Assembly: GCA_964510885.1 (NCBI GenBank)
Contig: CAZEDL010000006.1
Location: 12,531 to 76,530 of the forward strand
Direction: 5' to 3'
From: an uncultured Gammaproteobacteria bacterium
GTDB taxonomy: Bacteria > Patescibacteriota > Patescibacteriia > Magasanikbacterales > GWA2-37-8
Length of the DNA: 64,000 bases
The notes below the pieces were generated by a model. It ran no database searches. It had not been told where the DNA came from and saw only the letters and a program-made list of their open reading frames with translations. The translations under genes and the position numbers were made by a program. Within the stretch, counting starts at the first letter, position 1. Each line of letters opens with the position of its first letter. Below are positions 4,459 to 57,210 of this stretch, one piece after another.

Positions 4459-5424
4459 TTAGCGCTGTGGTTCAAGGGTAATCACCGCCACCTCAGGCGG
4501 AGTAAATAACCGAAGCGGCGCGCCCGATTCACTGGTTCCAACCGTAGTAAAAATTGGTACCTTATTCCAAAAATTCAGCCAGCGATAAAAGCCTGTTCCG
4601 AGCCTAGACTCAACCTGCCCAAGTGGACCAAGCCATGGAAGCCATAGCTGCCCACCATGAGTATGGCCGGACACTTCAAGATCAGGCAGCGGCAAATCTT
4701 TCGGCCAAAATAAAATCCCGTCTGGATTATGACTAATCTGGATCAACGGGGTATGTGGTGGCCACTTTTTTAAGGCTGAAAAATCAAACTGCTGGCGGTA
4801 CACTTCATCCATGCCAAATAAACAAATAACCTGCTGCTTGATCGTAGGACATTCTAATTCGTTGACCAATAATGGCACATTAAGCTCAGCCAGCCGGGCA
4901 GACACGAGGGTAGATTTATCATAGTTAGTTTGGTAATCATAGGCCCGGTAGCCATATTCATGATTACCAAGCACGGCATAGACGGGTAACTTTTCAGCCA
5001 ATGCGCGCAAAGGTGAGAGGTATACGCTCTCGTCTTCCACCCCTTCATTTACCGTATAGTCGCCAGCGAGTAGAACCAGATCTGGGTTAATCGAGAGTAT
5101 AGTAGTGACCACTTTTTGTATCCATGCTTCTCGTTTGTGCTCACCGGCATGCAGATCAGAAACCACTACCACCCTAACGGGCTCTTTAATCCCGTTGATA
5201 GGGATGGATACCCGGTGTACCCGCAGCCAATTAGGCTCAATAAATCGGACATAGATGCCGAGTACAATAATAAGGCCTATAACAACTAAGAGGCCATAAG
5301 CCAAAAGCGGCCTACGCCCCAGCCAGGAGCGTTTATTTTTTCGGTCGCGGTTAAAAAAATAGGCGAGTAAAGCCAATACTCCTATGCCACCATACAGAAT
5401 TATTAAATACGGATTCAAATCCAT
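4459..5424 (-). CDS. Membrane-anchored calcineurin-like metallophosphoesterase
   Basis: Two N-terminal TM helices; DLH...GDY...GNHEY...GHTH phosphoesterase motifs. Confidence 0.8.
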   Translation of the reverse strand: MDLNPYLIILYGGIGVLALLAYFFNRDRKNKRSWLGRRPLLAYGLLVVIGLIIVLGIYVRFIEPNWLRVHRVSIPINGIKEPVRVVVVSDLHAGEHKREAWIQKVVTTILSINPDLVLLAGDYTVNEGVEDESVYLSPLRALAEKLPVYAVLGNHEYGYRAYDYQTNYDKSTLVSARLAELNVPLLVNELECPTIKQQVICLFGMDEVYRQQFDFSALKKWPPHTPLIQISHNPDGILFWPKDLPLPDLEVSGHTHGGQLWLPWLGPLGQVESRLGTGFYRWLNFWNKVPIFTTVGTSESGAPLRLFTPPEVAVITLEPQR

Positions 5425-5427
5425 AGT

Positions 5428-5658
5428 CTAATCAATATACCGAAAGCGGGGGACAGTGGCTCCATTATATTCTACCGTTTGCAAAAATTCTTCCTTCGGC
5501 CTAATAAACCAAGCTTCATTCCCAACCTCAGGATGATTATACAAGGCCTTATACACCACCTGTTTTTCTAGTGTTTCATGATGATATGCCTCACCAAGGA
5601 CTTCGTAAAAATTACCTTTGTAATGTTGGTAGCGGCCAAGCTTAATATGGTCAGTCAT
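5428..5658 (-). CDS. DUF1653-like small protein
   Basis: The motif YQHYKGNFYEV...YKALYN...WFIRP resembles DUF1653. The stop lies 4 nt from the downstream gene, so it is probably co-transcribed. Confidence 0.55.
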   Translation of the reverse strand: MTDHIKLGRYQHYKGNFYEVLGEAYHHETLEKQVVYKALYNHPEVGNEAWFIRPKEEFLQTVEYNGATVPRFRYID

Positions 5659-6055
5659 AAGAAAAAAAGTTTTTTAACTATACCAAAAAAATAAGCTATC
5701 GTCTACGTAAAATAAATAAAAACCCTTAAATTATAAGGGTTGTCTAGTTGCAGACGAAATAAAGTATTATCTGATCCAGAGTTTTGATATTTTTGAGTGT
5801 TTAAAGGTGTGTCTAGTCTTTATAGCTTTATAATATGAAGTTTTTATACAGTAGAAATATTATTTTGCAGTTAGATGTTTAGAGTTTTCTCTTATAGTTC
5901 CTGTACGAGAACAGAAGCTATAAGAGAATCGACGGTTGGGTAAGAAAAGAAACGGACCGTCGCGCCGTGTCATGAAGGCAAGAATTTTCACCTGACCTAG
6001 GTTTTCACCTAGGTCTACCTAGTCGCCCCCTCCTTAAGAATACGACGCGGTTTGG

Positions 6056-7843
6056 TTACTTGGCCAGCTCGGCCTCCCGCAGGATGCGCTCAACCTGGCC
6101 ATTGGTGATGGGGTGGTAGCCGGCCTTAACCTGTTCAAAGACGCGCCGCGCCCAGGCCAGGCCCTGGACGGTCTTCGCCTTGGCCCGCATCAGCGGGAGG
6201 ACGTACTTCATCCGGCCGCCCTCGACCAGGAAGCGCTCGATCTGGTCGTCCACCGCCGTGTAGCCGGACTCGACGGCGAGGAGGAGGAACGCCCACTTGA
6301 TCTCGGCGAAGCGGTTGGTGCTGAGGTTGAACTCGATGTCGAGCTTGGCGACGAACTCCGGGGTGGCCGGGCGCGGTAGCAGTTCCAGGTAAAGCGTCCA
6401 CTGCGGGTCGGACCAGGCCTGGCCGACCTCGCGGGGCGGGATGATGGACTGCTCAGCGTACCGCGCGACGTCGTCGATGAGCAACGACTCGATCTTCGGA
6501 GCGTTCTCGGGCCAGCCTGGCTCGTAGACGTAGCGCCAGGCCTGGACCTGCTCCAGCGCACCCGGCAACTCGGAGGCCACGAAGTCGAGGAAGGTGGCGG
6601 TATCGATGGCCGTGAAGCGGAACCGGGCGATGTAGGCCCGGATGAACCGGTCGAAGCGCTCACGCCCGACCCTCTCCTCGATGGCCCGGATGAACATCGC
6701 CCCCTCGAAGTACGGCACCCGCGAGAAGATGTCGTCGGGGTCGACGGCGCAGGAGATGTGGGTGGACAGGGCGGTAAGCTCGGGAGTGCCGGTCGTGATG
6801 AAGTGGTGGCAGTCCCGGCTGAACTCTCGGCCACGCAGGGCCATCTGCAGGAGGGCCGCGTCGCGGCCATGGAGCGCCTCGTAGATGCGCCACTCGATGT
6901 AGGTCGTCCAGCCCTCGTTGAGCCAGAACGACCGCCAGTCGGCATTGCCGATCAAGTTGCCGGTCCAGGAGTGGGCCAGCTCGTGGCCGACGACAGCCGC
7001 GCCGCCGGGGATTAGGGTGGGTGTCAGGAAGGTGAGCCGCGGGTTCTCCATGCCCCCGTAGGGGAAGGAGGGCGGCAGGATCAACAGGTCGAACCGCTCC
7101 CAGTCGTACGGGCCGAAGAGCCCCTCGGCCACGTCCATCATCTGTCCGACCTGGGCGAACTCAGCAGCCGCCGCGTCGACCAGCTCCACCTCGGACCAGA
7201 CGCGGCAGCGATCGGTGATGTCGCGCGACACCAGGTCGCCGACGGCGATGGCCATGAGGTAGGCCGGGATGCGCTGGGGCATACGGTATCGCTCGATCGC
7301 GAGCTCGCCCTGCTCCTCGCGGCCGAGGTGGTTGGCCGCCATGAGCGCGCGCAGCGCCTTTGGCACCGTGATCTCCGCCGAGTAGCTGAAGCGGATATTG
7401 GGGGTGTTCTGGCACGGCACCAGGCTCGGTGCGTGCAGGGCCTGGAATTGGGTGAACAGGTATGGGTGCCGCTTGCCCTTGGTCTGCTCAGCGCTGAGCC
7501 ACTGGATGCCGCTGGCCTCAGGCGAGGTGTGGTAGCGGATATTGACCCGGGGCTCGTCCTCGGGGACCATGACGTTCAGCCGCTGGCCTAGGACCGGCTT
7601 CGACTCGTGGAGCTGGAACTCCAGGGTCTGACCGGAGTTGTCGGTGACGGCTTCGATGGTGAGGTCCCGGACGTCGAGATCGACCGTGCCGCCCTGGCCG
7701 AAGTCGATAGTGGCGGTGCAGCTAATCGTCCTGGTGGCGAAGTTGATCTGGGCCTGCAGGTGCAGGTGGGTCATCGTCGGCTGACCCGGGCCGTAGTATG
7801 AATGCGGATCGCGCTTGATTGCTGGCATCTGCATCATGCACAT
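6056..7843 (-). CDS. M1-family zinc aminopeptidase (leukotriene A4 hydrolase/aminopeptidase N-like); high-GC gene
   Basis: HELAHSWTGNL...WLNEGWTTY is the HEXXH-(18)-E gluzincin M1 signature. GC is about 66% against about 50% in flanking DNA. The likely start is MCMMQM at 7843, preceded by GGAGAG; the ORF track extends to 7912. Confidence 0.85.
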   Translation of the reverse strand: MCMMQMPAIKRDPHSYYGPGQPTMTHLHLQAQINFATRTISCTATIDFGQGGTVDLDVRDLTIEAVTDNSGQTLEFQLHESKPVLGQRLNVMVPEDEPRVNIRYHTSPEASGIQWLSAEQTKGKRHPYLFTQFQALHAPSLVPCQNTPNIRFSYSAEITVPKALRALMAANHLGREEQGELAIERYRMPQRIPAYLMAIAVGDLVSRDITDRCRVWSEVELVDAAAAEFAQVGQMMDVAEGLFGPYDWERFDLLILPPSFPYGGMENPRLTFLTPTLIPGGAAVVGHELAHSWTGNLIGNADWRSFWLNEGWTTYIEWRIYEALHGRDAALLQMALRGREFSRDCHHFITTGTPELTALSTHISCAVDPDDIFSRVPYFEGAMFIRAIEERVGRERFDRFIRAYIARFRFTAIDTATFLDFVASELPGALEQVQAWRYVYEPGWPENAPKIESLLIDDVARYAEQSIIPPREVGQAWSDPQWTLYLELLPRPATPEFVAKLDIEFNLSTNRFAEIKWAFLLLAVESGYTAVDDQIERFLVEGGRMKYVLPLMRAKAKTVQGLAWARRVFEQVKAGYHPITNGQVERILREAELAK

Positions 7844-10037: not shown

Positions 10038-11564
10038 TTATGATTTCGGCGGAGTCGGCACTTTACCGCGTTTATACGGAATAATCTGTTTTATCCAGCT
10101 ACTCAGCGACGTATTCTTCAAGGAGTTTTTAATATGCGCCCGCGCGTGGTGCGTCTTTACGGTTTTCAGCCAATCCGGGCTCGGGCCTTTGCGATTCTTG
10201 TCGATCGTGATCGCCACCACGTCGCCGCTTTTAAGCGGTGTATCAAGTGACATCAATTGATCATTCACCCGGGCACCGCTACACTGGTTGCCGATATCGC
10301 TATGAATATGATAGGCAAAATCCACCGGCGTGGCATCTTCGGGCAAATCGATCACGTCGCCCTTCGGGGTGAAGACAAAAATTCGGTTCTGGAAAAAATC
10401 TACTTTCAATTCTTCCATCCCCGACAGGTTCACCAAGATTTCCTGCTGGATTCTGGCCAGTTCCTTGGCCCAGGCCACATCACGCGGGGGCCGGCGCGAC
10501 CCTTTTTCATCATAGAGCCAATGCGCGGCCACACCGAATTCCGCTTCCGCATGCATTTCCGGGGTACGAATCTGGAATTCCACCACCTTGCCATTATCGG
10601 CAAACACCGTGGTATGGAGCGACGAATAGCCGTTCGGCTTCGGCTGCGCAATATAATCTTTAATCCGGCCTTTCAGGGGCCGCCACAATTGGTGAATGAT
10701 CCCGAGCGTGGCATAACAATCGCCCACATCACCCACAATCACGCGCAGCGCCACAATGTCATACATCTTATCCGTTTCCCAGCCTTTACGCTGCAATTTT
10801 TGAAACAAGCTATAGAGCTGTTTTTGTCGGCCGTAGACATCCATTAATTTAATATGCGCCTTAGATAATTCCGTCCGGATTCGGGCCGTTACTTTTTCGA
10901 TCGAATCGCCCTGATCTGCCAGCAGACGATCGCGGATAGTTTTAGTCCGTTCGTATTCCTTGGGATAAATATACGGGAAGGACAAATCTTCCAGAAATCC
11001 TTTGAATTCACCCATGCCGAGGCGGTGCGCGATCGGAGCATAAATCTCAAGGCTCTCGAGCGCAATTCGGTGCCGTTTTTTTTCGGGCAGAGCATCGAGC
11101 GTGGTCAAGTTGTGTGTTCGATCGGCAAATTTAATCACCATCACGCGGACATCTTCGGCCATGGCCACGAACATCTTGCGCAAATTTTCGAGGTAGCGCT
11201 CAATGCCGCGGTATTTGAGTTTGCCAAGCTTCGTAATCCCTTCGATCATTTTGGCAATATCAGCCCCGAAATTTTTTTCAATCTCGGCCAGTGTCACTGC
11301 CGTATCTTCCGGCACATCGTGCAGGAGGGTGGCCACAATAATATTCGTCTCCATGCGCATTGTGGCCAAAATCCAGGCTGCCGCCAGAGGGTGCACAATA
11401 TATGGCTCGCCGGATTTGCGGAATTGTCCCGAGTGAGCGTTGGCTGCAAAATCATAGGCCAACCGCACCATTTCAAGATCCGATGATCCGCGGTACGACC
11501 GGATTTCTTTGACCAGTTTATCAATCGTCAGATCAGCGGGGATAGTAGTGCTGCTATATGACAT
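10038..11564 (-). CDS. Bifunctional (p)ppGpp synthetase/hydrolase Rsh (RelA/SpoT homolog), short form
   Basis: HD hydrolase domain (HD...DVPED), synthetase domain (RTPEMHAEAEFGVAAHWLY) and a TGS region. At 508 aa the C-terminal ACT/RIS region appears to be missing. Confidence 0.9.
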   Translation of the reverse strand: MSYSSTTIPADLTIDKLVKEIRSYRGSSDLEMVRLAYDFAANAHSGQFRKSGEPYIVHPLAAAWILATMRMETNIIVATLLHDVPEDTAVTLAEIEKNFGADIAKMIEGITKLGKLKYRGIERYLENLRKMFVAMAEDVRVMVIKFADRTHNLTTLDALPEKKRHRIALESLEIYAPIAHRLGMGEFKGFLEDLSFPYIYPKEYERTKTIRDRLLADQGDSIEKVTARIRTELSKAHIKLMDVYGRQKQLYSLFQKLQRKGWETDKMYDIVALRVIVGDVGDCYATLGIIHQLWRPLKGRIKDYIAQPKPNGYSSLHTTVFADNGKVVEFQIRTPEMHAEAEFGVAAHWLYDEKGSRRPPRDVAWAKELARIQQEILVNLSGMEELKVDFFQNRIFVFTPKGDVIDLPEDATPVDFAYHIHSDIGNQCSGARVNDQLMSLDTPLKSGDVVAITIDKNRKGPSPDWLKTVKTHHARAHIKNSLKNTSLSSWIKQIIPYKRGKVPTPPKS

Positions 11565-12078: not shown

Positions 12079-12285
12079 ATGCCGTTCGCCACCGCTTCCC
12101 AGGAAGATCATCCTGCCACCAGCCCGATCCACCCTGCTGCCCAGGAGTCCGCCGATGCGCCCGCGGACCCTCTGTTCATCGATGAGGTCCACGAGGTCTT
12201 CAACATCCCGCGTCGGCCCTCTGGGCCTGAGGTGGGGGGTGACCCCGTGTACAAGAGGCCACGCGGAACCTACTTCGTGTCGTAA
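12079..12285 (+). CDS. Hypothetical 68-aa protein in a high-GC segment, with a strong Shine-Dalgarno
   Basis: AAGGAG lies 6 nt before the ATG. GC is about 62% with GC3 bias. No recognisable domain. This could instead be part of a structured RNA. Confidence 0.3.
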   Translation: MPFATASQEDHPATSPIHPAAQESADAPADPLFIDEVHEVFNIPRRPSGPEVGGDPVYKRPRGTYFVS

Positions 12286-12320
12286 TCATCGGCACGCAGT
12301 TCACCGCCGGACGCTCGAGC

Positions 12321-12390
12321 GCTCCGGTCTTCCGGTGTTACCGGAACTGATGAGTCCTTTCAGAATAAGATCAGGACGAAACCAAATTCG
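12321..12390 (+). ncRNA. Candidate type III hammerhead ribozyme
   Basis: GUC cleavage triplet at 12327-12329; stem I hairpin UUCCGGU-GUU-ACCGGAA at 12330-12346; CUGAUGA at 12347-12353; stem II GUCCU...AGGAC at 12354-12377; GAA at 12378-12380; then AC starting stem III. All 11 conserved core nucleotides are in canonical positions. Stem III is only about 3 bp (A-U, C-G, C-G). Confidence 0.6.
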
Positions 12391-12397
12391 TGAGTTA

Positions 12398-12426
12398 CCA
12401 GTTTGTACTGGCTTTATTTGTTTTTT
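12398..12426 (+). terminator. Hairpin ACCAGT-ttgt-ACTGG followed by a T-rich run, downstream of the hammerhead motif
   Basis: Seen in sequence. Confidence 0.4.
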
Positions 12427-12467
12427 TAAATTAAAATATAACCTATTAAAATAAAATTGCCTATAGT

Positions 12468-12896
12468 ATGTCAAAAAATAAACCTGAAGTCCCATTCTGG
12501 GATTTCCCCCCAGAAAATACCGGTTCAGTTTTGGAAGAAAATGGCAGGCCAGTGCGTGACCGAAATGCCGCGGATGTTTTTAATAAATTAGAAAGAAAGG
12601 CGAATGAATGGGGAATTGATCTTGGCTCACTAAAAATTTTAGACAGACCTGAATTGATTGCCCAGTTATTAATTGATAAAAAAGTTGCAATTGTAGCAGA
12701 CGGCCCTTTTATAAATGATCATGATATGCAGACAATAGCGGATGCTGTTGTAGAGGATTGGCGCCCGGCATCTGGCACTTTGAGCGATCACGAGCGACAA
12801 AACTTATCTGCATTAGTGTATGACTGCCTCTCTCTAAACGAAGGTGAAGAGGAATTATTGGCAGCATATAATAAAGGAATTAAAAATAAAGAGTAA
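12468..12896 (+). CDS. Hypothetical protein (142 aa, acidic, no recognised domain)
   Basis: ORF only. Confidence 0.5.
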   Translation: MSKNKPEVPFWDFPPENTGSVLEENGRPVRDRNAADVFNKLERKANEWGIDLGSLKILDRPELIAQLLIDKKVAIVADGPFINDHDMQTIADAVVEDWRPASGTLSDHERQNLSALVYDCLSLNEGEEELLAAYNKGIKNKE

Positions 12897-12931
12897 TCTA
12901 TATTATTTAATTGGTATCGTAAAATATCCTC

Positions 12932-12960
12932 TTGACAAAATCCTCAAACTGTGCTATACT
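12932..12960 (+). promoter_or_regulatory. Near-consensus sigma70 promoter TTGACA-17-TGcTATACT (extended -10)
   Basis: TTGACA at 12932-12937, TATACT at 12955-12960, TG at -15/-14. Confidence 0.6.
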
Positions 12961-12965
12961 ACCAT

Positions 12966-13056
12966 TTGTGATACAAAGAAAACCTTAGCGCCAACGTATA
13001 ACCCCACTAGTAATAGCGGGGTTATATCGTTTTAAAAGGTATAGATGGCCAAATAG
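12966..13056 (+). ncRNA. Candidate small RNA 1 (about 90 nt), promoter-to-terminator unit
   Basis: It follows the promoter at 12932-12960. It contains the hairpin AACCCC-12nt-GGGGTT (13001-13024) and ends at GGCC-AAATA-GGCC followed by TTTTTT (13037-13056). No plausible ORF and no downstream plus-strand gene. Confidence 0.4.
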
Positions 13057-13082
13057 GCCGTTTTTTGTTTAAGCGTGGTCAA

Positions 13083-13131
13083 TAAACCTCTGGATTCCCG
13101 TTAGAGTTTACCTCCAGCGTAGGCGGGGCGG
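13083..13131 (-). repeat. Palindromic repeat family A, copy 1 (GGATTCCCG...CGGGAATGACA)
   Basis: Its reverse complement (GTCATTCCCGCCCCGCCTACGCTGGAGGTAAACTCTAACGGGAATCC) is near-identical to 52126-52173. Confidence 0.7.
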
Positions 13132-13179
13132 GAATGACACTAAAAAATAGTATTCACCAAGCTTTTTTTCTTTAAACCC

Positions 13180-13207
13180 TTGCATTTTTAGCGATTTTTG
13201 CTATACT
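13180..13207 (+). promoter_or_regulatory. Second near-consensus promoter TTGCAT-16-TGcTATACT
   Basis: TTGCAT at 13180-13185, TATACT at 13202-13207, extended -10 TG. Confidence 0.55.
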
Positions 13208-13212
13208 GCGCG

Positions 13213-13306
13213 CGTAGGCCTCAATCGGGCCTTTGTATCACCTTTGGCATCAAGGCATACCCTTTGAGCCTACATTAAAAACATCCCGTGGCGGGATGTT
13301 TTTTGA
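13213..13306 (+). ncRNA. Candidate small RNA 2 (about 93 nt)
   Basis: It starts after the promoter at 13180-13207. An 8-bp closing stem GUAGGCUC...GAGCCUAC encloses a CCUUUG-repeat region. It ends at the terminator AACATCCCG-tg-GCGGGATGTT followed by TTTTTT (13280-13306), which also serves the convergent gene at 13321. Confidence 0.4.
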
Positions 13307-13320
13307 TTCTAAAGTGGGTG

Positions 13321-13797
13321 TTAGTTAAGCTTCTCTCTAACCGTCTCTCCCAATTCTTTTAACCAATTCAGCACCGATTTATAGTAAGCAATATTCAGGA
13401 GTAATAACGTAATCACCACAATCGCATCATAGCTTTGCCGCACCCAGTACCCATCTTCCAGCCGGACCCACATCCCAAACTCATCAAACGTCAGGCCAAG
13501 CCCAATGCCATAGATAAACGTCAGCCAGCGAAAGCTACGCGATCCAAGTTCCGGCCGCCGCATAATAAAATAAAATCCGACCAGTACCAGAATTACTACC
13601 CCATAGGTAAAATGGTGGATGTGCACCCCGCGGATGGTCAAGAAAAAATTCGGTACCAAGTTATCAAGCACGAGGTATACGAACATGCGCGAGATAAAAA
13701 AGGTCACCAAAAAAGAAAAGGCAATAATGCCAATCAGGCGGCGATTACTGGGGGTATTGTATTCTTTGAGTTCCATGTTTTTTACAATAATTGTCAT
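13321..13797 (-). CDS. Hypothetical integral membrane protein (4 predicted TM helices)
   Basis: ORF with hydrophobic segments; no recognised motif. Confidence 0.5.
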   Translation of the reverse strand: MTIIVKNMELKEYNTPSNRRLIGIIAFSFLVTFFISRMFVYLVLDNLVPNFFLTIRGVHIHHFTYGVVILVLVGFYFIMRRPELGSRSFRWLTFIYGIGLGLTFDEFGMWVRLEDGYWVRQSYDAIVVITLLLLNIAYYKSVLNWLKELGETVREKLN

Positions 13798-13825
13798 CTC
13801 CGTGTAGGCGAAAACTACACTCGAC

Positions 13826-13916
13826 TGTCATCCTGAGCGTTAGCGAAGGATCCCTTAACGCTAACTTCATCGATGCTTTTGATTTTAAGCGATTCTTCGT
13901 TTCACTCAGAATGACA
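13826..13916. repeat. MITE-like repeat family B, copy 1 (about 91 bp; TIRs TGTCATCCTGAG...CTCAGAATGACA)
   Basis: The left 35 bp is near-identical to 52203-52237, and the terminal inverted repeats match. Confidence 0.7.
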
Positions 13917-13937
13917 AGTTGATTGCGATGTGTGACT

Positions 13938-13964
13938 GGATTCCCGCTTTCGCGGGAATGACAA
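13938..13964. repeat. Repeat family A, short copy (GGATTCCCGC-tttc-GCGGGAATGACA)
   Basis: It shares the GGATTCCCGC/GCGGGAAT palindrome. Confidence 0.55.
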
Positions 13965-13990
13965 GGAGTTGAATGAAGCTAAGATCGTGC

Positions 13991-16219
13991 TTATTCGGTA
14001 ACTGGCGCATCTTTTTTAAATCCACACTCTTTGCTACTGCACGCAATCACGCCTTTAGCTTTGAAGGTTAGAAGTGATTGGCAATTCGGGCACTTTTCCC
14101 CATTCGGCCGATCCCACATGGCAAATTTACAGTCCGGGTAGCGATTACAGGCAAAGAATAATTTGCCGCGCTTGCTTTTCTTTTGCACGAGTTCACCCTC
14201 CTTGCACTCCGGGCAGGGGATATTAAGTTTAGTTTCAATCTTTTTGATAAATTTACAGTCCGGATACTTGGAGCACCCGAGGAACGGCCCGAACCGGCCA
14301 TGCTTGATCGCGAGCGGTGCGCCGCATTTTTCACACGTCTCATGGCTCATTTCCACGCCGCCAAGTGCGGCTGCTTCTTCGGCGAGTGGCTTGGTGTTTT
14401 TACAGTCCGGATAACCACTGCAAGCCATGAATCTGCCAAAGCGCCCACGTTTGATGATCATGGGTTTACTGCATTTATCGCACACCTCATCGGTGGCTTC
14501 CTCAGTCAATTCTTTTTTGCTGAGTTCTTTATCTTTTTTATCTAGGTTCTCTTTGAACGGGCCATAAAAATCAGCCATCACCGGCTGCCAGTTTTTGTCG
14601 CCAGCGGCAATATCATCGAGGCGCTCTTCCATTTGGGCGGTAAATTCATAATCCACCACCTGCGGGAAATGTTCGACCAGTAGGTCGTTCACGAGGTATG
14701 CAATCTCTTCCGGTTCCAGTTTTTTACGCTCATCGCGCTTCACGTAGCCACGATCTTCGATCGTAGCAATGGTCGGGGCATACGTGGACGGCCGACCAAT
14801 GCCATGTTCTTCTAAAATTTTAACAAGTGTGGCATCCGAATACCGGGCCGGTGGCTCGGTGAAATGCTGCTCGGGTGTCAGGCTCTCTTCAGTCATGGCT
14901 GTGCCGTCGGTCAGCAGCGGCAAGCTATTTTCTTTGACTTTATCTGGATACAGTTTAAGCCAACCATCGAAAATAATAGTTTGTCCGGTGGCATGAAATA
15001 CATATTTGTTGGCACTCACAATATCAAGCGAGGTGGCGTTCAACGCGGCTTCTTTCATTTGGGTGGCTACTGCCCGTTTCCAGATCAGGCTATACAGCCG
15101 ATGCTGATTGGTTTCGAGAAACGGTTTCACCACGTCCGGGGTACGCAGCGCACTCGTGGGGCGGATCGCTTCATGGGCTTCTTGTGCGTTCTTATTTTTA
15201 TTTTTAAAATGTCGCGGCTCACTCAGCTGATACGTGGCGCCAAATTCTTCACCGATCGCAGTTTGGGCTTCAGCCAAAAACAGATCCGACAAATTCACCG
15301 CGTCGGTACGCATGTAGGTGATAAGACCCACGTGCCCTTCGCTGCCAAGTTCCACCCCTTCGTACAATTGTTGTGCCAGACGCATCGTCTGCTTGGCCGA
15401 AAAGCCAAGCGTATGGTTGGCTTCCTGCTGCAAGGTAGACGTAGTGAATGGGGCCGGCGGCTGACGGGTGGTTTTTTTCTCTTCAATATTCACGGCCGTA
15501 TAGGTGGTGCCGCTAAGTGCTGTTACAATCTCATCTACTTGGGTTTTATTTTTTAAATCCAGCTTGTCCAGTTTTTTATTCGGCAAGTTGGTAAGCGTAG
15601 CAGACACGGTGTCATTTTTTCCATCTACCCCAAACAAGCCCTCGATAGTCCAGTATTCTTCAGCTACAAACGCTTTGATCTCGCGCTCGCGCTCCACGAT
15701 GAGGCGCACTGCTACCGATTGAACACGCCCGGCGGACAAGCCCCGCGCCACTTTGCGCCATAGGAATGGCGACAAATTGTATCCCACCAGGCGATCAAGC
15801 ACTCGGCGAGCTTGCTGCGCATCCACCAGTTGCAAATTAAGTCCGCGCGGATGCTCCACTGCCTTCAGCAAGGCTGCTTTGGTAATTTCATGAAAGGTGA
15901 TCCGTTTCGCTTGGTGCGGATCGATGCCAAGAATCGTCGCCAAATGCCAAGAAATGGCCTCGCCTTCGCGGTCCTCATCAGTTGCAAATAAGATCTCGTC
16001 GACTTTTTTGGCTGCCTCTTTCAGTTCTTTGGCCACTGCCGATTTATCACGGCTCACAATATACTGAGGTTCAAAATTGTGTTCCACATCCACCCCCAGC
16101 TTGCTTTTTGGCAAGTCGCGCACATGGCCGAACGATGATTTGATAATATATTTTTTTCCGAGGAAAGCGCTGATCGTTTTGGCTTTGGCTGGCGACTCTA
16201 CGATGACAAGTGTTTTCAT
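13991..16219 (-). CDS. topA: DNA topoisomerase I with C-terminal zinc ribbons
   Basis: TOPRIM N-terminus (MKTLVIVESPAKAKTI), an active-site Tyr region, and multiple C-terminal CxxC zinc-ribbon repeats; 742 aa. Confidence 0.95.
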   Translation of the reverse strand: MKTLVIVESPAKAKTISAFLGKKYIIKSSFGHVRDLPKSKLGVDVEHNFEPQYIVSRDKSAVAKELKEAAKKVDEILFATDEDREGEAISWHLATILGIDPHQAKRITFHEITKAALLKAVEHPRGLNLQLVDAQQARRVLDRLVGYNLSPFLWRKVARGLSAGRVQSVAVRLIVEREREIKAFVAEEYWTIEGLFGVDGKNDTVSATLTNLPNKKLDKLDLKNKTQVDEIVTALSGTTYTAVNIEEKKTTRQPPAPFTTSTLQQEANHTLGFSAKQTMRLAQQLYEGVELGSEGHVGLITYMRTDAVNLSDLFLAEAQTAIGEEFGATYQLSEPRHFKNKNKNAQEAHEAIRPTSALRTPDVVKPFLETNQHRLYSLIWKRAVATQMKEAALNATSLDIVSANKYVFHATGQTIIFDGWLKLYPDKVKENSLPLLTDGTAMTEESLTPEQHFTEPPARYSDATLVKILEEHGIGRPSTYAPTIATIEDRGYVKRDERKKLEPEEIAYLVNDLLVEHFPQVVDYEFTAQMEERLDDIAAGDKNWQPVMADFYGPFKENLDKKDKELSKKELTEEATDEVCDKCSKPMIIKRGRFGRFMACSGYPDCKNTKPLAEEAAALGGVEMSHETCEKCGAPLAIKHGRFGPFLGCSKYPDCKFIKKIETKLNIPCPECKEGELVQKKSKRGKLFFACNRYPDCKFAMWDRPNGEKCPNCQSLLTFKAKGVIACSSKECGFKKDAPVTE

Positions 16220-16334: not shown

Positions 16335-16364
16335 TTGACAGGGCTGTCAAATGGGCCATATAAT
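16335..16364 (+). promoter_or_regulatory. Consensus sigma70 promoter TTGACA-18-TATAAT whose -35 lies inside a perfect palindrome TTGACAGGGCTGTCAA
   Basis: TTGACA at 16335-16340, TATAAT at 16359-16364, palindrome at 16335-16350. Confidence 0.55.
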
Positions 16365-52173: not shown

Positions 52174-52202
52174 AGTCACGCGTCATCGTACTAGGCTCAA
52201 CC

Positions 52203-52294
52203 TGTCATTCTGAGCGTTAGCGAAGAATCCCTTAAAGTTAAATTTTGGTATTAGTTTTAGCGTCAAGGGATCTTTCACTGCGTTCAGGATGACA
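52203..52294. repeat. MITE-like repeat family B, copy 2 (TIRs TGTCATTCTGAG...TCAGGATGACA)
   Basis: The left arm is near-identical to 13826-13860. The internal inverted repeats are GTCATTCTGAGCGTTAGCGAAGAATCCC and GGGATCTTTCACTGCGTTCAGGATGAC. Confidence 0.7.
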
Positions 52295-56214: not shown

Positions 56215-56351
56215 ATTCAATTCTAAATAAATAAAATCCCCGAATTAAGGGGATTTTTCAGTACCGTTATTGTATGCCAAGATTTTTGGCTGTGTTCTGA
56301 GGAGCTGCTATAAAAAATGGCTTAATTTAGCCAAAATATTGCCAAAACCCA

Positions 56352-56380
56352 TTGACAAAACCCTGTTTTTGTGGTATACT
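56352..56380 (+). promoter_or_regulatory. Near-consensus promoter TTGACA-17-TGgTATACT, upstream of the high-GC lipoprotein gene
   Basis: TTGACA at 56352-56357, TATACT at 56375-56380. It is closely similar over about 40 bp to the promoter at 12932-12960. Confidence 0.55.
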
Positions 56381-56517
56381 TATTTGTTTAGTGCCTGAGA
56401 CGTAATATCGAGCCAGTATTTTGCTAAAAATAGCTAAGTAACGCCCTATATACTACTAATCGTACTATATACCGCGGTGCCTAGCACCATAAACTGAAAA
56501 TTGATAGGAGTTCGCTG

Positions 56518-57210
56518 ATGAACAAAAAAATTGGTCAGACCCTTGCGATCCTCGCCACCCTTCTCCTCGGCGCTTGCGGCTCCACGGAGTCGGGGCCGCT
56601 GGAGAAGGATCCTGCGCCCACCGCTCCCCAGACCGTCTACGGCGCCTGCACCTCCGACTCGCAGTGCCCCGGGGGCACGTGCCAGCAGGGCGTCTGCGTG
56701 GTCGAGAAGATCATCACGGTGCCGGCTGAGCCGGTCTGTGGCATCCGCTATAGCAAGCTGGATCTGGCCCCGGTGCCCTCGCGCAGCGAGCCCGTACAGC
56801 CGACCCTCTGCTTCCGCGCCGAGCCCTCGGTCATCTCGCCGAACTGCCAGCCGGTGGCGACCAATTTCGCATTCATCTTCCGCGTCAAGAGCGAGCGCCT
56901 CGACAAAGTCAACGTGATCCCGGGTGCGACCGTCGATGGGCAGAGCGTGGCCTTCCCGCTCCTCAACGGTGGCTCGCTCGGACCGAGCGGCTGGTACTAT
57001 GTCCGCCATGAGATCGCTGGCGTTCGCGACATCGGCAACGGCCTCACCATCTGCGCGCAGTGCACCAACTGCGCCACACCCGACGATCAGCCAAAGCTCG
57101 GTGTCTACATGGAGAGTCGGCTCGAGGGCGTGACGTGGGCCAAGACGCCGACCAGCGCGACCGAGAAGAACTACAGCCTCGACCTGCCCGTGGCGCTCGG
57201 CATCTTCTAG
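56518..57210 (+). CDS. High-GC Cys-rich lipoprotein (hypothetical)
   Basis: Lipobox LLLGAC, a GGAG-type RBS, about 64% GC with strong GC3 bias, and Cys-rich segments (CTSDSQCPGGTCQQGVC, CAQCTNC). Confidence 0.6.
   Translation: MNKKIGQTLAILATLLLGACGSTESGPLEKDPAPTAPQTVYGACTSDSQCPGGTCQQGVCVVEKIITVPAEPVCGIRYSKLDLAPVPSRSEPVQPTLCFRAEPSVISPNCQPVATNFAFIFRVKSERLDKVNVIPGATVDGQSVAFPLLNGGSLGPSGWYYVRHEIAGVRDIGNGLTICAQCTNCATPDDQPKLGVYMESRLEGVTWAKTPTSATEKNYSLDLPVALGIF

Follow-up and report, generated by a model that had tools for sequence, protein, structure and literature searches.

Two small-RNA genes beside topA in Patescibacteria whose products are predicted to pair with each other

A 64,000-nucleotide stretch of DNA from an assembly labelled as an uncultured Gammaproteobacteria bacterium (GenBank GCA_964510885.1, contig CAZEDL010000006.1, positions 12,531 to 76,530; hereafter the window, with position 1 as its first letter) carries, between topA and a gene for a RelA/SpoT homologue (relA), two tandem units on the plus strand, unit 1 (u1) and unit 2 (u2). 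Our reading, to which we assign a probability of roughly 0.6, is that these are two separate, strongly promoted small RNA (sRNA) genes, u1 specifying ~70-100 nt and u2 ~93 nt, and that their products form a specific heterodimer. One part of this reading, that both are conserved and structured sRNA genes, we hold with high confidence. An earlier description made from the letters of the window without database searches (the sequence-only reading) had proposed two orphan, non-coding units of ~90 nt; the non-coding units are borne out by promoters, RNA bodies and terminators that are conserved in relatives and by covariation there, while their description as orphan, independent units does not hold, as u1 and u2 are complementary to each other and this complementarity, which had been missed, co-varies.

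Two non-coding transcription units

The u1 promoter (plus strand) comprises TTGACA at 12932-12937, a 17-nt spacer with TGc, and TATACT at 12955-12960; the u2 promoter (plus strand) comprises TTGCAT at 13180-13185, a 16-nt spacer with TGc, and TATACT at 13202-13207. In a consensus scan the u1 promoter matched at 11 of 12 positions with an extended -10, and the first transcribed G of u1 lies 7 nt past the -10 box. When the whole window was scored with a custom scheme, the u1 promoter reached 12 of 13 points, which makes it one of the three top sigma70-like sites, and the u2 promoter reached 10 of 13 and fell outside the top eight, so that the earlier statement that both promoters rank among the best in the window stands for the first and has to be withdrawn for the second.

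At its 3′ end, u1 in the window has a second intrinsic terminator (13043-13069, plus strand; hairpin and T-run, GAUGGCCAAAUAGGCCGUUUUUU) that is specific to the window clade: it is also present in the related locus L004, is displaced by an inserted palindrome in L001, and has no counterpart as a separate second hairpin between the long u1 hairpin and the u2 promoter in L012, L201-L203, L211 and L212. In most relatives the long u1 hairpin is followed directly by a U-run and would thus serve as its own terminator, and for this reason we take u1 to be only ~70 nt long there. The u2 transcript would end at an intrinsic terminator with a 12-bp stem and T6 (13277-13306, plus strand), the stem of which covaries. 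This terminator is probably bidirectional and also serves the convergent minus-strand gene at 13321-13797, the stop codon of which is 15 nt away.

The open reading frames (ORFs) that start within the two transcripts are 31 aa long at most, and the next plus-strand ORF of appreciable size begins at 16335, in agreement with the sequence-only reading, which had found no credible ORF and no plus-strand gene for 3 kb. Both RNAs are predicted to fold more stably than shuffled sequences, u1 at -34.6 kcal/mol (z = -4.6) and u2 at -37.0 kcal/mol (z = -4.8), with 0 of 200 shuffles as good in each case. The window sequence and its folding thus place both promoters, both terminators and both folds where they had been proposed. 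Each unit shows the sequence features expected of an independent sRNA gene: a promoter and an intrinsic terminator of its own, the lack of any conserved ORF, and homologues in relatives that covary.

Searches for known RNA families at the locus were negative, as the sequence-only reading had anticipated. Rfam 15 at the gathering threshold returned only four tRNAs, all elsewhere in the window, and ARAGORN placed no tRNA or tmRNA gene between 8186 and 25210. In E-value mode, on 600 nt, the best Rfam match was the rimP leader (RF01770; 27.3 bits against a gathering score of 47), with all others at E > 0.5. This weak resemblance of unit 1 (27 bits, E = 0.027) is what could be said for regarding the locus as a cis-regulatory leader, or as a degenerate protein-coding remnant, with fortuitous promoter and terminator matches, an explanation to which we give almost no credence. 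The score is far below the 47-bit cut-off and reflects only the generic shape shared with RF01770, a stable hairpin and an intrinsic terminator within ~100 nt; moreover, the rimP leader is gammaproteobacterial and the window host is not, and neither rimP nor any other plus-strand gene lies downstream. The promoters are also conserved base for base in 11 other loci. A degenerate coding origin, named in the sequence-only reading as a finding that would count against the two units, is contradicted by the relatives, in which no ORF is conserved and substitutions track base pairs, not codons.

Occurrence in related genomes

When 185,579 species genomes were searched, the closest relatives of the window topA were metagenome-assembled genomes (MAGs) of Patescibacteria (the Candidate Phyla Radiation, CPR), many of them named Magasanikbacteria, the best two being 80% identical. 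In the protein collection used, the window topA was 100% identical to P0001, and an exact-protein look-up of the window topA and the window membrane protein returned no record. Both units, each with its own promoter, were found in 11 loci besides the window (loci are designated by L and a number), at topA identities from 80% down to ~57%. The total of 12 pairs, window included, divides into a main family of nine (the window, L001, L004, L012, L201, L202, L203, L211 and L212) and three distant pairs (L010, L015 and L020), to which two lone u2 genes are added.

Several searches contributed to this set. L004 and L001 were identified as carriers of both units when positions 12401-14000 were compared by BLASTN with the topA loci, and in the three-way alignment with the window, whose topA protein is only 80% identical to theirs, the RNA bodies are near-invariant over ~60 nt, as are the -10 boxes; the inter-unit spacer is not conserved. 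A profile search identified diverged copies of u1 and u2 in L012, a Magasanikbacteria MAG, in the same order and orientation and between topA and relA. Comparison of the window topA with the protein collection led us to the contigs of ten homologues (69-73% identity), five of which hold both units in the topA-relA gap (L201, L202, L203, L211 and L212). The contig of L204 ends inside the region and has u2 only, and no pair was found near topA in the other four, three of which have topA and relA nearly adjacent and one of which (L208) has another gene context. In L018, u2 lies immediately before the contig end. A metagenome scan with a u1 pattern (GCGCCAAC..AACCCC..GGGGTT) gave mostly chance hits among the matches listed, the only real one being L170, identical in sequence to L012. 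Running covariance models R1 and R2 over 93 loci added L015 alone. Viral contigs were scanned with the 19-mer of the u2 loop, and all nine matches fell in coding-like sequence unrelated to u2 and none fitted the model; we therefore see no phage link.

Distant members were sought with a pair screen. It required of each promoter that the initial 20-26 nt of its transcript have, no more than 1.5 kb away, a complementary stretch of ≥10 nt (≥11 in the first pass) containing no more than one G-U. This screen recovered all known pairs together with L010 and L020, so that the combination of a promoter, a 5′ seed and a nearby complementary loop provides a search template that finds distant members missed by sequence and covariance-model searches. 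One of its candidates, L062, was rejected as the promoter of a protein gene, and L022, L041 and L208 also came up, probably as false leads.

In main-family loci the u1 promoter has a perfect TTGACA separated by 14 nt from TGn and a -10 hexamer, with GUGAU 6-7 nt further on, and TTGACA with an extended -10 at equal spacing is found in L001, L004, L012, L201-L203, L211, L212, L010, L015 and L020. The u2 promoter has a more variable -35 (TTGCAT, TTGCTT, TTGCGT or TTGATT) with an extended -10 in all eight other main-family loci with both units, and 6-7 nt separate its -10 from GUAGG or GUGGG.

Structure and covariation of the two RNAs

The predicted u1 RNA (plus strand) begins with the seed GUGAUACAAAG (12968-12978), continues with the segment CCUUAG-C-GCCAA (12983-12994), and then forms a long hairpin, H1 (12993-13035), which has AACG/CGUU as its lower helix, then a bulge of 1 nt on the 3′ side and an upper helix capped by GUAA; UUUU comes next. 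In a covariance-model alignment, 96% of the H1 cells are paired and 10 of the 14 pairs have compensatory changes; 0 of 500 shuffles were as good, and slid registers were 27-47% paired. RNAalifold on a plain MAFFT alignment likewise returned H1, 9 of whose 14 pairs carried compensatory changes. Five lineages have GUAA as the apical loop, one has a UUCG-like loop and others differ, and given this variation we regard it as structural and not as a sequence motif. A shorter hairpin, H0, can form upstream, since in the main family seed nt 7-12 can pair with the six nt preceding CGCCAAC (81.5% paired); the first part of the 12983-12994 segment is the 3′ arm of H0, and its second part, GCCAA, has its complement, UUGGC, in the u2 loop.

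The u2 body (13214-13273, plus strand) is an irregular stem made up of the closing helix P1 (13214-13224/13263-13273), P2 (GG/CC) and P3 (GCCUU/AAGGC), capped by a 19-nt apical loop. In a covariance-model alignment of 12 sequences, 93% of cells are paired and compensatory changes occur in 11 of 16 pairs, values that none of 500 shuffles equalled; RNAalifold supports the fold. The closing helix described in the sequence-only reading therefore exists, in the form of 6 bp, a bulged C and 4 bp and not as a plain 8-bp helix, and its two-part form with a bulge recurs in relatives. P3 is 4-5 bp long across relatives (CCUU/AAGG, or CCCC/GGGG in L018). In the main family the loop (~20 nt) is near-invariant, reading (A/U)(G/A)(U/C)AUCACC(A/U)UUGGCAU(C/U). 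As for the CCUUUG-repeat region that had been singled out in u2, it is in part the predicted u1 binding site (first copy) and in part helix arms. The H0 stem of u1 and the P3 stem of u2 are identical in sequence. Conservation and covariation in relatives, which the sequence-only reading had put forward as a check, were thus found for u1 and for u2.

Probable pairing of the u1 seed with the u2 loop

In the window, nt 1-11 of u1 are the exact reverse complement of u2 13231-13241 (site A′, CUUUGUAUCAC, plus strand), which is made up of the P3 5′ arm and the adjoining 5′ portion of the loop. We refer to this predicted duplex as helix A. The sequences on both sides change in relatives and the complementarity persists: L201 and L202 combine the seed GUGAUACUAAG with the site CUUAGUAUCAC; L203, L211 and L212 combine GUGAUAUUAAGG with CCUUAAUAUCAC; L012 combines GUGAUGUUAAGG with CCUUAGCAUCAC through one U-G pair; and L001 combines GUGAUACAGAG with CUUUGUAUCAC through one G-U pair. 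In a composite alignment of the nine main-family pairs, which is free of indels, nt 1-11 are paired in nine of nine, with double changes at three positions (position 6, AU/GC; position 7, CG/UA/UG; position 8, UA/AU) and one GU at position 9. Slid registers were 33-53% paired, and none of 500 shuffles reached the covariation score. Seed nt 7 covaries with both of its partners, the intramolecular one in H0 and the intermolecular one in u2. Duplex energies computed between the u1 seed and full-length u2 were compared with those of 1000 shuffles in seven pairs; z ranged from -4.4 to -7.0, and in no pair did more than one shuffle do as well (window, z = -5.3, 0 of 1000).

The distant pairs, which were scored with a custom script outside the composite alignment, extend this pattern. 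L015 was recognised from a weak match to the u2 model (26 bits) between topA and relA, and a search with the complement of its u2 loop led to a u1 promoter with a perfect TTGACA, a 14-nt spacer, TGc and TAGGAT, the u1 RNA starting with UUUGUUGAUGCUAGG, a 15-nt perfect match to the u2 loop CCUAGCAUCAACAAA. In L010, u1 GUGAAUGCUAAGGG and u2 CCCUUAGUAUUCAC can form 14-15 bp with one G-U, and in L020 u1 UGUUGAUGAUAGGG faces u2 CCCU(U)AUCAUCAACA. Seed and site are thus rewritten in L010, L015 and L020, with matching length changes in both partners and with 14-15 bp kept. In L020 the u2 gene is inverted, has a promoter of its own (TTGTAT, a 17-nt spacer and TATAAT) and shares a bidirectional terminator with u1. 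We consider it probable, and well supported by these changes, that u1 and u2 pair through helix A; direct sRNA-sRNA pairing, as predicted, is supported at the level of sequence co-evolution. If so, the u1 partners of the two lone u2 genes, which would lie beyond the contig ends, should start with GUAAUGCUAAGG in L204 and with GUGAUGCUGGGG in L018.

L015 has a further feature near its u2 gene. At ~10525-10490 (minus strand), directly upstream of the u2 promoter, a terminator-like hairpin, ACGGGUC[AGCGGCAAAUCGCCAAC]GACCCGU with a U-run, carries the CGCCAAC motif typical of main-family unit 1, and the real u1 partner lies ~700 nt further upstream; the hairpin may be a remnant of a second or older unit 1.

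Complementary 11-mers could also be inverted repeats that act as DNA, for instance as an invertible promoter switch, as the ends of a mobile element or as an operator pair. They flank a ~250-bp segment that contains a promoter, mobile palindromes are inserted nearby, and a resolvase/recombinase gene lies near parA in L209, a related locus without the pair. The repeats are nevertheless imperfect in L001, L012 and L010, where the pairing is completed by G-U wobble alone, and in L020, where u2 stands on the other strand together with its promoter and closing helix, they are direct and the RNAs are still complementary. The G-U pairs and the direct repeats of L020 exclude, in our view, a DNA-level inverted-repeat explanation. 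In addition, one of the repeats begins 6-7 nt past the -10, at the presumed start of transcription, in ten loci with a GTG-initial seed; neither the second helix described below nor the intramolecular covariation has a DNA-level explanation; and recombinase linkage is absent from the loci that carry the pair. An invertible switch or the ends of a miniature inverted-repeat transposable element (MITE) are accordingly a poor description of the locus, and we regard any such DNA-level role as very improbable.

A second candidate helix and a proposed crossing topology

Beyond the seed, u1 CCUUAG-C-GCCAA (12983-12994) can pair antiparallel with u2 UUGGC-AUC-AAGG (13244-13255, sites B′-C′, plus strand), which covers the 3′ part of the loop and the 3′ arm of P3; we call this second candidate duplex helix B/C. 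Throughout the main family the GCCAA of u1 and the UUGGC of u2 do not vary. The distant pairs have other complementary sequences at the same position: L010 has GACA/UGUC, one clean double change from GCCA/UGGC; L015 has u1 ACCUAGAAACUU and u2 AAGUUUCGGGGU, in which 11 of 12 positions are paired around the core GAAACUU/AAGUUUC; and L020 has UCCAAUU/AAUUGGG, with the core CCAAUU/AAUUGG. The best duplex of the second half of u1 fell at the homologous u2 site in six of the seven pairs tested, with modest z scores of -0.6 to -3.5. RNAcofold instead extended the pairing of u1 into the 5′ arm of u2 P1, a model that we rejected since the covariation of P1 is that of an intramolecular helix.

In u1 and in u2 alike, the segment for helix A is the more 5′ of the two, ahead of that for helix B/C. 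Since this order is the same on the two molecules, the helices must cross and a simple extended duplex is impossible. The arrangement suggested by these sequences would be a four-way junction of H0, P3 and two short intermolecular helices, which could branch-migrate to two side-by-side helices of ~12 bp. That helix B/C and the crossing topology are right is, in our estimation, only a little better than an even chance.

Several points weigh against the heterodimer. The main-family alignment behind the helix A count was assembled by hand, and the independent substitution events that underlie it number ~4-5; because these are so few, main-family helix A is suggestive rather than conclusive taken alone. 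Helix B/C is invariant in the main family, so that its support comes from the three distant pairs (z = -1.9 to -3.5), and its formation would require two basal A-U pairs of H1 to be opened. The computed gain of the heterodimer over the monomers is small, 0 to -7.7 kcal/mol, a figure from nearest-neighbour cofolding, which cannot model crossing helices. The pair was not detected in the flanks of other relatives, including L006-L009 and L205-L210, where it may be elsewhere in the genome or absent. The transcripts themselves are read from promoters and terminators, and the output of the pairing is a guess, with no target or protein partner found.

Possible pairing pathway and function

In the pathway that we envisage, u1 would present a 5′ seed whose 3′ half is held in H0, followed by a short single-stranded CGCCAAC and then the terminator hairpin, and u2 would present its ~20-nt loop at the end of a long irregular stem (P1, P2, P3). 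Contact would start where the free 5′ nucleotides GUGAUA of u1 meet UAUCAC in the u2 loop, and, by spreading into the P3 5′ arm, would build helix A up to 11-15 bp. This would open H0 and P3, and the freed CCUUA-GCCAA of u1 could then pair with the freed UUGGC-AAGG of u2 as helix B/C of ~10 bp, a pairing that is open to the freed segments because the H0 and P3 stems share their sequence. The order of these steps, the three-dimensional arrangement and the biological output are inferred. In the completed complex each RNA would occlude the whole functional surface of the other, and a free excess of one of them would act on a target. Mutual titration, that is, an sRNA with a dedicated anti-sRNA, is the output that we consider most likely, though we favour it only tentatively and at less than even odds.

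We looked for targets of either RNA outside the pair. Complements of the u1 seed, of the CGCCAAC region of u1 and of the u2 loop were not enriched above chance in the 64-kb window, and pairing of u1 or u2 with the translation-start regions of relA, topA and the membrane-protein gene showed nothing consistent in seven genomes, a result that gives no support to the convergent membrane-protein gene as the pairing partner suggested by the sequence-only reading. These searches speak against two ordinary, independent trans-acting sRNAs with their own mRNA targets and an incidental complementarity or minor cross-talk between them. The build of u1 would suit such a role, with its classical 5′ seed and Rho-independent terminator, as would the large u2 loop with its C/U-rich motifs; the compensatory changes and the rewriting of both partners in distant lineages, however, point to selection on u1-u2 pairing itself. 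The joint drift of seed and loop also makes numerous third-party targets unlikely, as these would freeze the seed. We therefore consider independent sRNAs improbable, and the pairing itself seems to be what selection maintains.

The same evidence can be read differently, in that u1 and u2 could be the halves of an obligate two-piece RNA, with the heterodimer as the functional molecule, for example as the scaffold of a ribonucleoprotein. Only architecture and mutual complementarity are kept across distant lineages, quite unlike a hub sRNA with a target-frozen seed; both genes are linked, with strong and constitutive-looking promoters; and no mRNA target was found in the 64-kb window or among the neighbouring genes in seven genomes. 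A protein for such a particle is harder to supply, as no conserved protein gene is adjacent and the membrane protein is present in loci without the pair and absent from some with it. The parts of the two RNAs outside the pairing regions, H1 and P1, are purely structural and lack conserved loop motifs that a protein might recognise, and the split RNAs known to Rfam and ARAGORN are unlike the pair. On balance we think a two-piece RNA unlikely, while giving it a better chance than independent sRNAs. If it were true, the pair would represent a new class of heterodimeric non-coding RNA, joined by two co-evolving helices in a four-way junction and acting as a single molecule, widespread in Patescibacteria, the most reduced bacterial genomes, and fixed beside relA.

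Two kinds of neighbouring proteins were also considered as partners of the RNAs and rejected, the small membrane protein because its presence or absence does not track the pair and the products of two small ORFs upstream of u1 (12155-12454 and 12468-12896) because they occur in the window only.

Comparison with known RNA systems

Pairing that nucleates between a loop and a single strand and then spreads into stems is known from CopA/CopT of plasmid R1 and from RNA-OUT/RNA-IN of IS10, the RNA-IN partner being its 5′ end, and the stable complex of the CopA/CopT type has two side-by-side intermolecular helices around a four-way junction and not one full duplex. The u1/u2 pair, as predicted from its sequences, would resemble RNA-IN/RNA-OUT in the nucleation between a 5′ end and a loop and CopA-CopT in the four-way-junction topology implied by the crossing order of its helices. 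In both known systems the partners are encoded in cis on opposite strands and are fully complementary, and one of them is an mRNA or a primer. In contrast to CopA/CopT, u1 and u2 are separate genes ~250-800 bp apart, with their own promoters and on the same strand in 11 of 12 loci; both are non-coding, and their complementarity of ~25 nt is held by co-evolution.

A second comparison is with sRNA sponges, such as RsaI with RsaG and RsaE in Staphylococcus aureus, RosA with RoxS and FsrA in Bacillus subtilis, and SroC with GcvB in enterobacteria. As in these cases, a trans-encoded sRNA is predicted to bind another sRNA through a short seed and would presumably block the corresponding region of its partner. 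The sRNAs bound by known sponges, however, have conserved seeds and numerous mRNA targets, and the sponges are not known to be encoded beside their partners, whereas the u1 and u2 genes are linked, their seeds drift together and nearly all of their conserved sequence serves the mutual interaction. The side-by-side genes and the mutual pairing as the conserved feature recall crRNA:tracrRNA and two-piece tmRNA. Unlike crRNA:tracrRNA, the locus has no repeat arrays, its neighbours are topA, relA and small proteins without domains, and there is no cas or nuclease gene nearby. Nor does it resemble a retron, as no reverse transcriptase was found by Pfam among the adjacent genes or in the gene tables of related loci, and there are two promoters and two terminators.

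The pair is thus without a match in Rfam and differs from sponges and from plasmid antisense systems in being trans-encoded, linked, doubly non-coding and co-evolving. It is kept at one locus across lineages with topA ~57-80% identical to that of the window, and would be a rare natural case of separately encoded RNAs that visibly co-evolve to keep a bimolecular structure. Patescibacteria have genomes of ~1 Mb with few recognisable regulators and almost no cultured members, and our search of the literature on small RNAs in Patescibacteria/CPR found nothing; the pair offers a concrete object for the study of RNA-based regulation in this group, in the form of two RNAs of <100 nt with predicted compensatory mutants.

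Gene neighbourhood and host lineage

The u1/u2 pair sits between topA and the relA/spoT homologue wherever flanks are available. The order topA, relA, parB, parA is common among related genomes, and the fuller order topA, (small membrane protein), u2, u1, relA, parB, parA is found across related loci; in 11 of 12 loci the pair is convergent with topA, the exception being L020, in which u2 is on the topA strand. In the window, topA, a type IA topoisomerase gene, occupies 13991-16219 (minus strand), and the membrane-protein gene at 13321-13797 (minus strand) encodes 158 aa without a domain match and is 74% identical at the DNA level in the BLASTN comparison with topA loci. On the other side, the RelA/SpoT homologue (508 aa; 10038-11564, minus strand) is the only (p)ppGpp synthetase/hydrolase gene, and the u1 promoter is back to back with its promoter region. 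Between relA and unit 1, in the window genome only, are inserted the two plus-strand ORFs noted above (99 and 142 aa), which have no counterpart in related loci; scans of the flanking small ORFs with Pfam and NCBIfam gave zero domains. The window RelA/SpoT homologue is short, with HD, RelA_SpoT and TGS domains and without a recognised C-terminal domain, as are those of related loci, and L020 has two tandem RelA/SpoT paralogues (4870-6240 and 6307-7740).

We assign the window to a Patescibacteria genome of Magasanikbacteria-like affinity. Several records with the closest topA genes are labelled "uncultured Gammaproteobacteria", a name that conflicts with all the nearest neighbours of these records and that we treat as a binning label. 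Records so titled include the MAGs of L001, L004, L010 and L018, whose affiliation with Patescibacteria is indicated by topA, by the order of their genes and by the sRNA pair; the labels of these relatives are probably wrong.

Repeats and a further promoter

The spacer between the two units contains a palindromic repeat (GGATTCCCG...CGGGAATGACAC, 13092-13140), which had been reported in the sequence-only reading and is indeed present; it is a mobile insertion outside the RNA pair that L004 and most relatives lack and that in L001 is placed elsewhere, inside unit 1 between the hairpin and the terminator. It is a longer-loop version of a small palindrome, (GTC)ATTCCCGC-N4-GCGGGAAT(GAC), found at 13936-13964, in the gap that separates topA from the membrane-protein gene. 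Distant CPR genomes contain copies 25-30 nt long and 92-100% identical (L001:8601-8625, L007:8289-8313, L012:41-70, L025:857-933 and L030:455-482), and the palindrome looks like a widespread element of the MITE or repetitive extragenic palindrome (REP) kind. A second repeat family, CTGTCATCCTGAGCGTTAGCGAAGGATCCC, has copies at 13825-13867 and 52202-52244 that are 88% identical, one of them just upstream of the membrane-protein gene.

Another of the three top-scoring promoters in the window lies far from the pair, at 56349-56380 (TTGACA, a 17-nt spacer with TGg, and TATACT), and is separated from an ATG at 56519 by a leader of ~130 nt (56381-56518), which could be a cis-regulatory leader.

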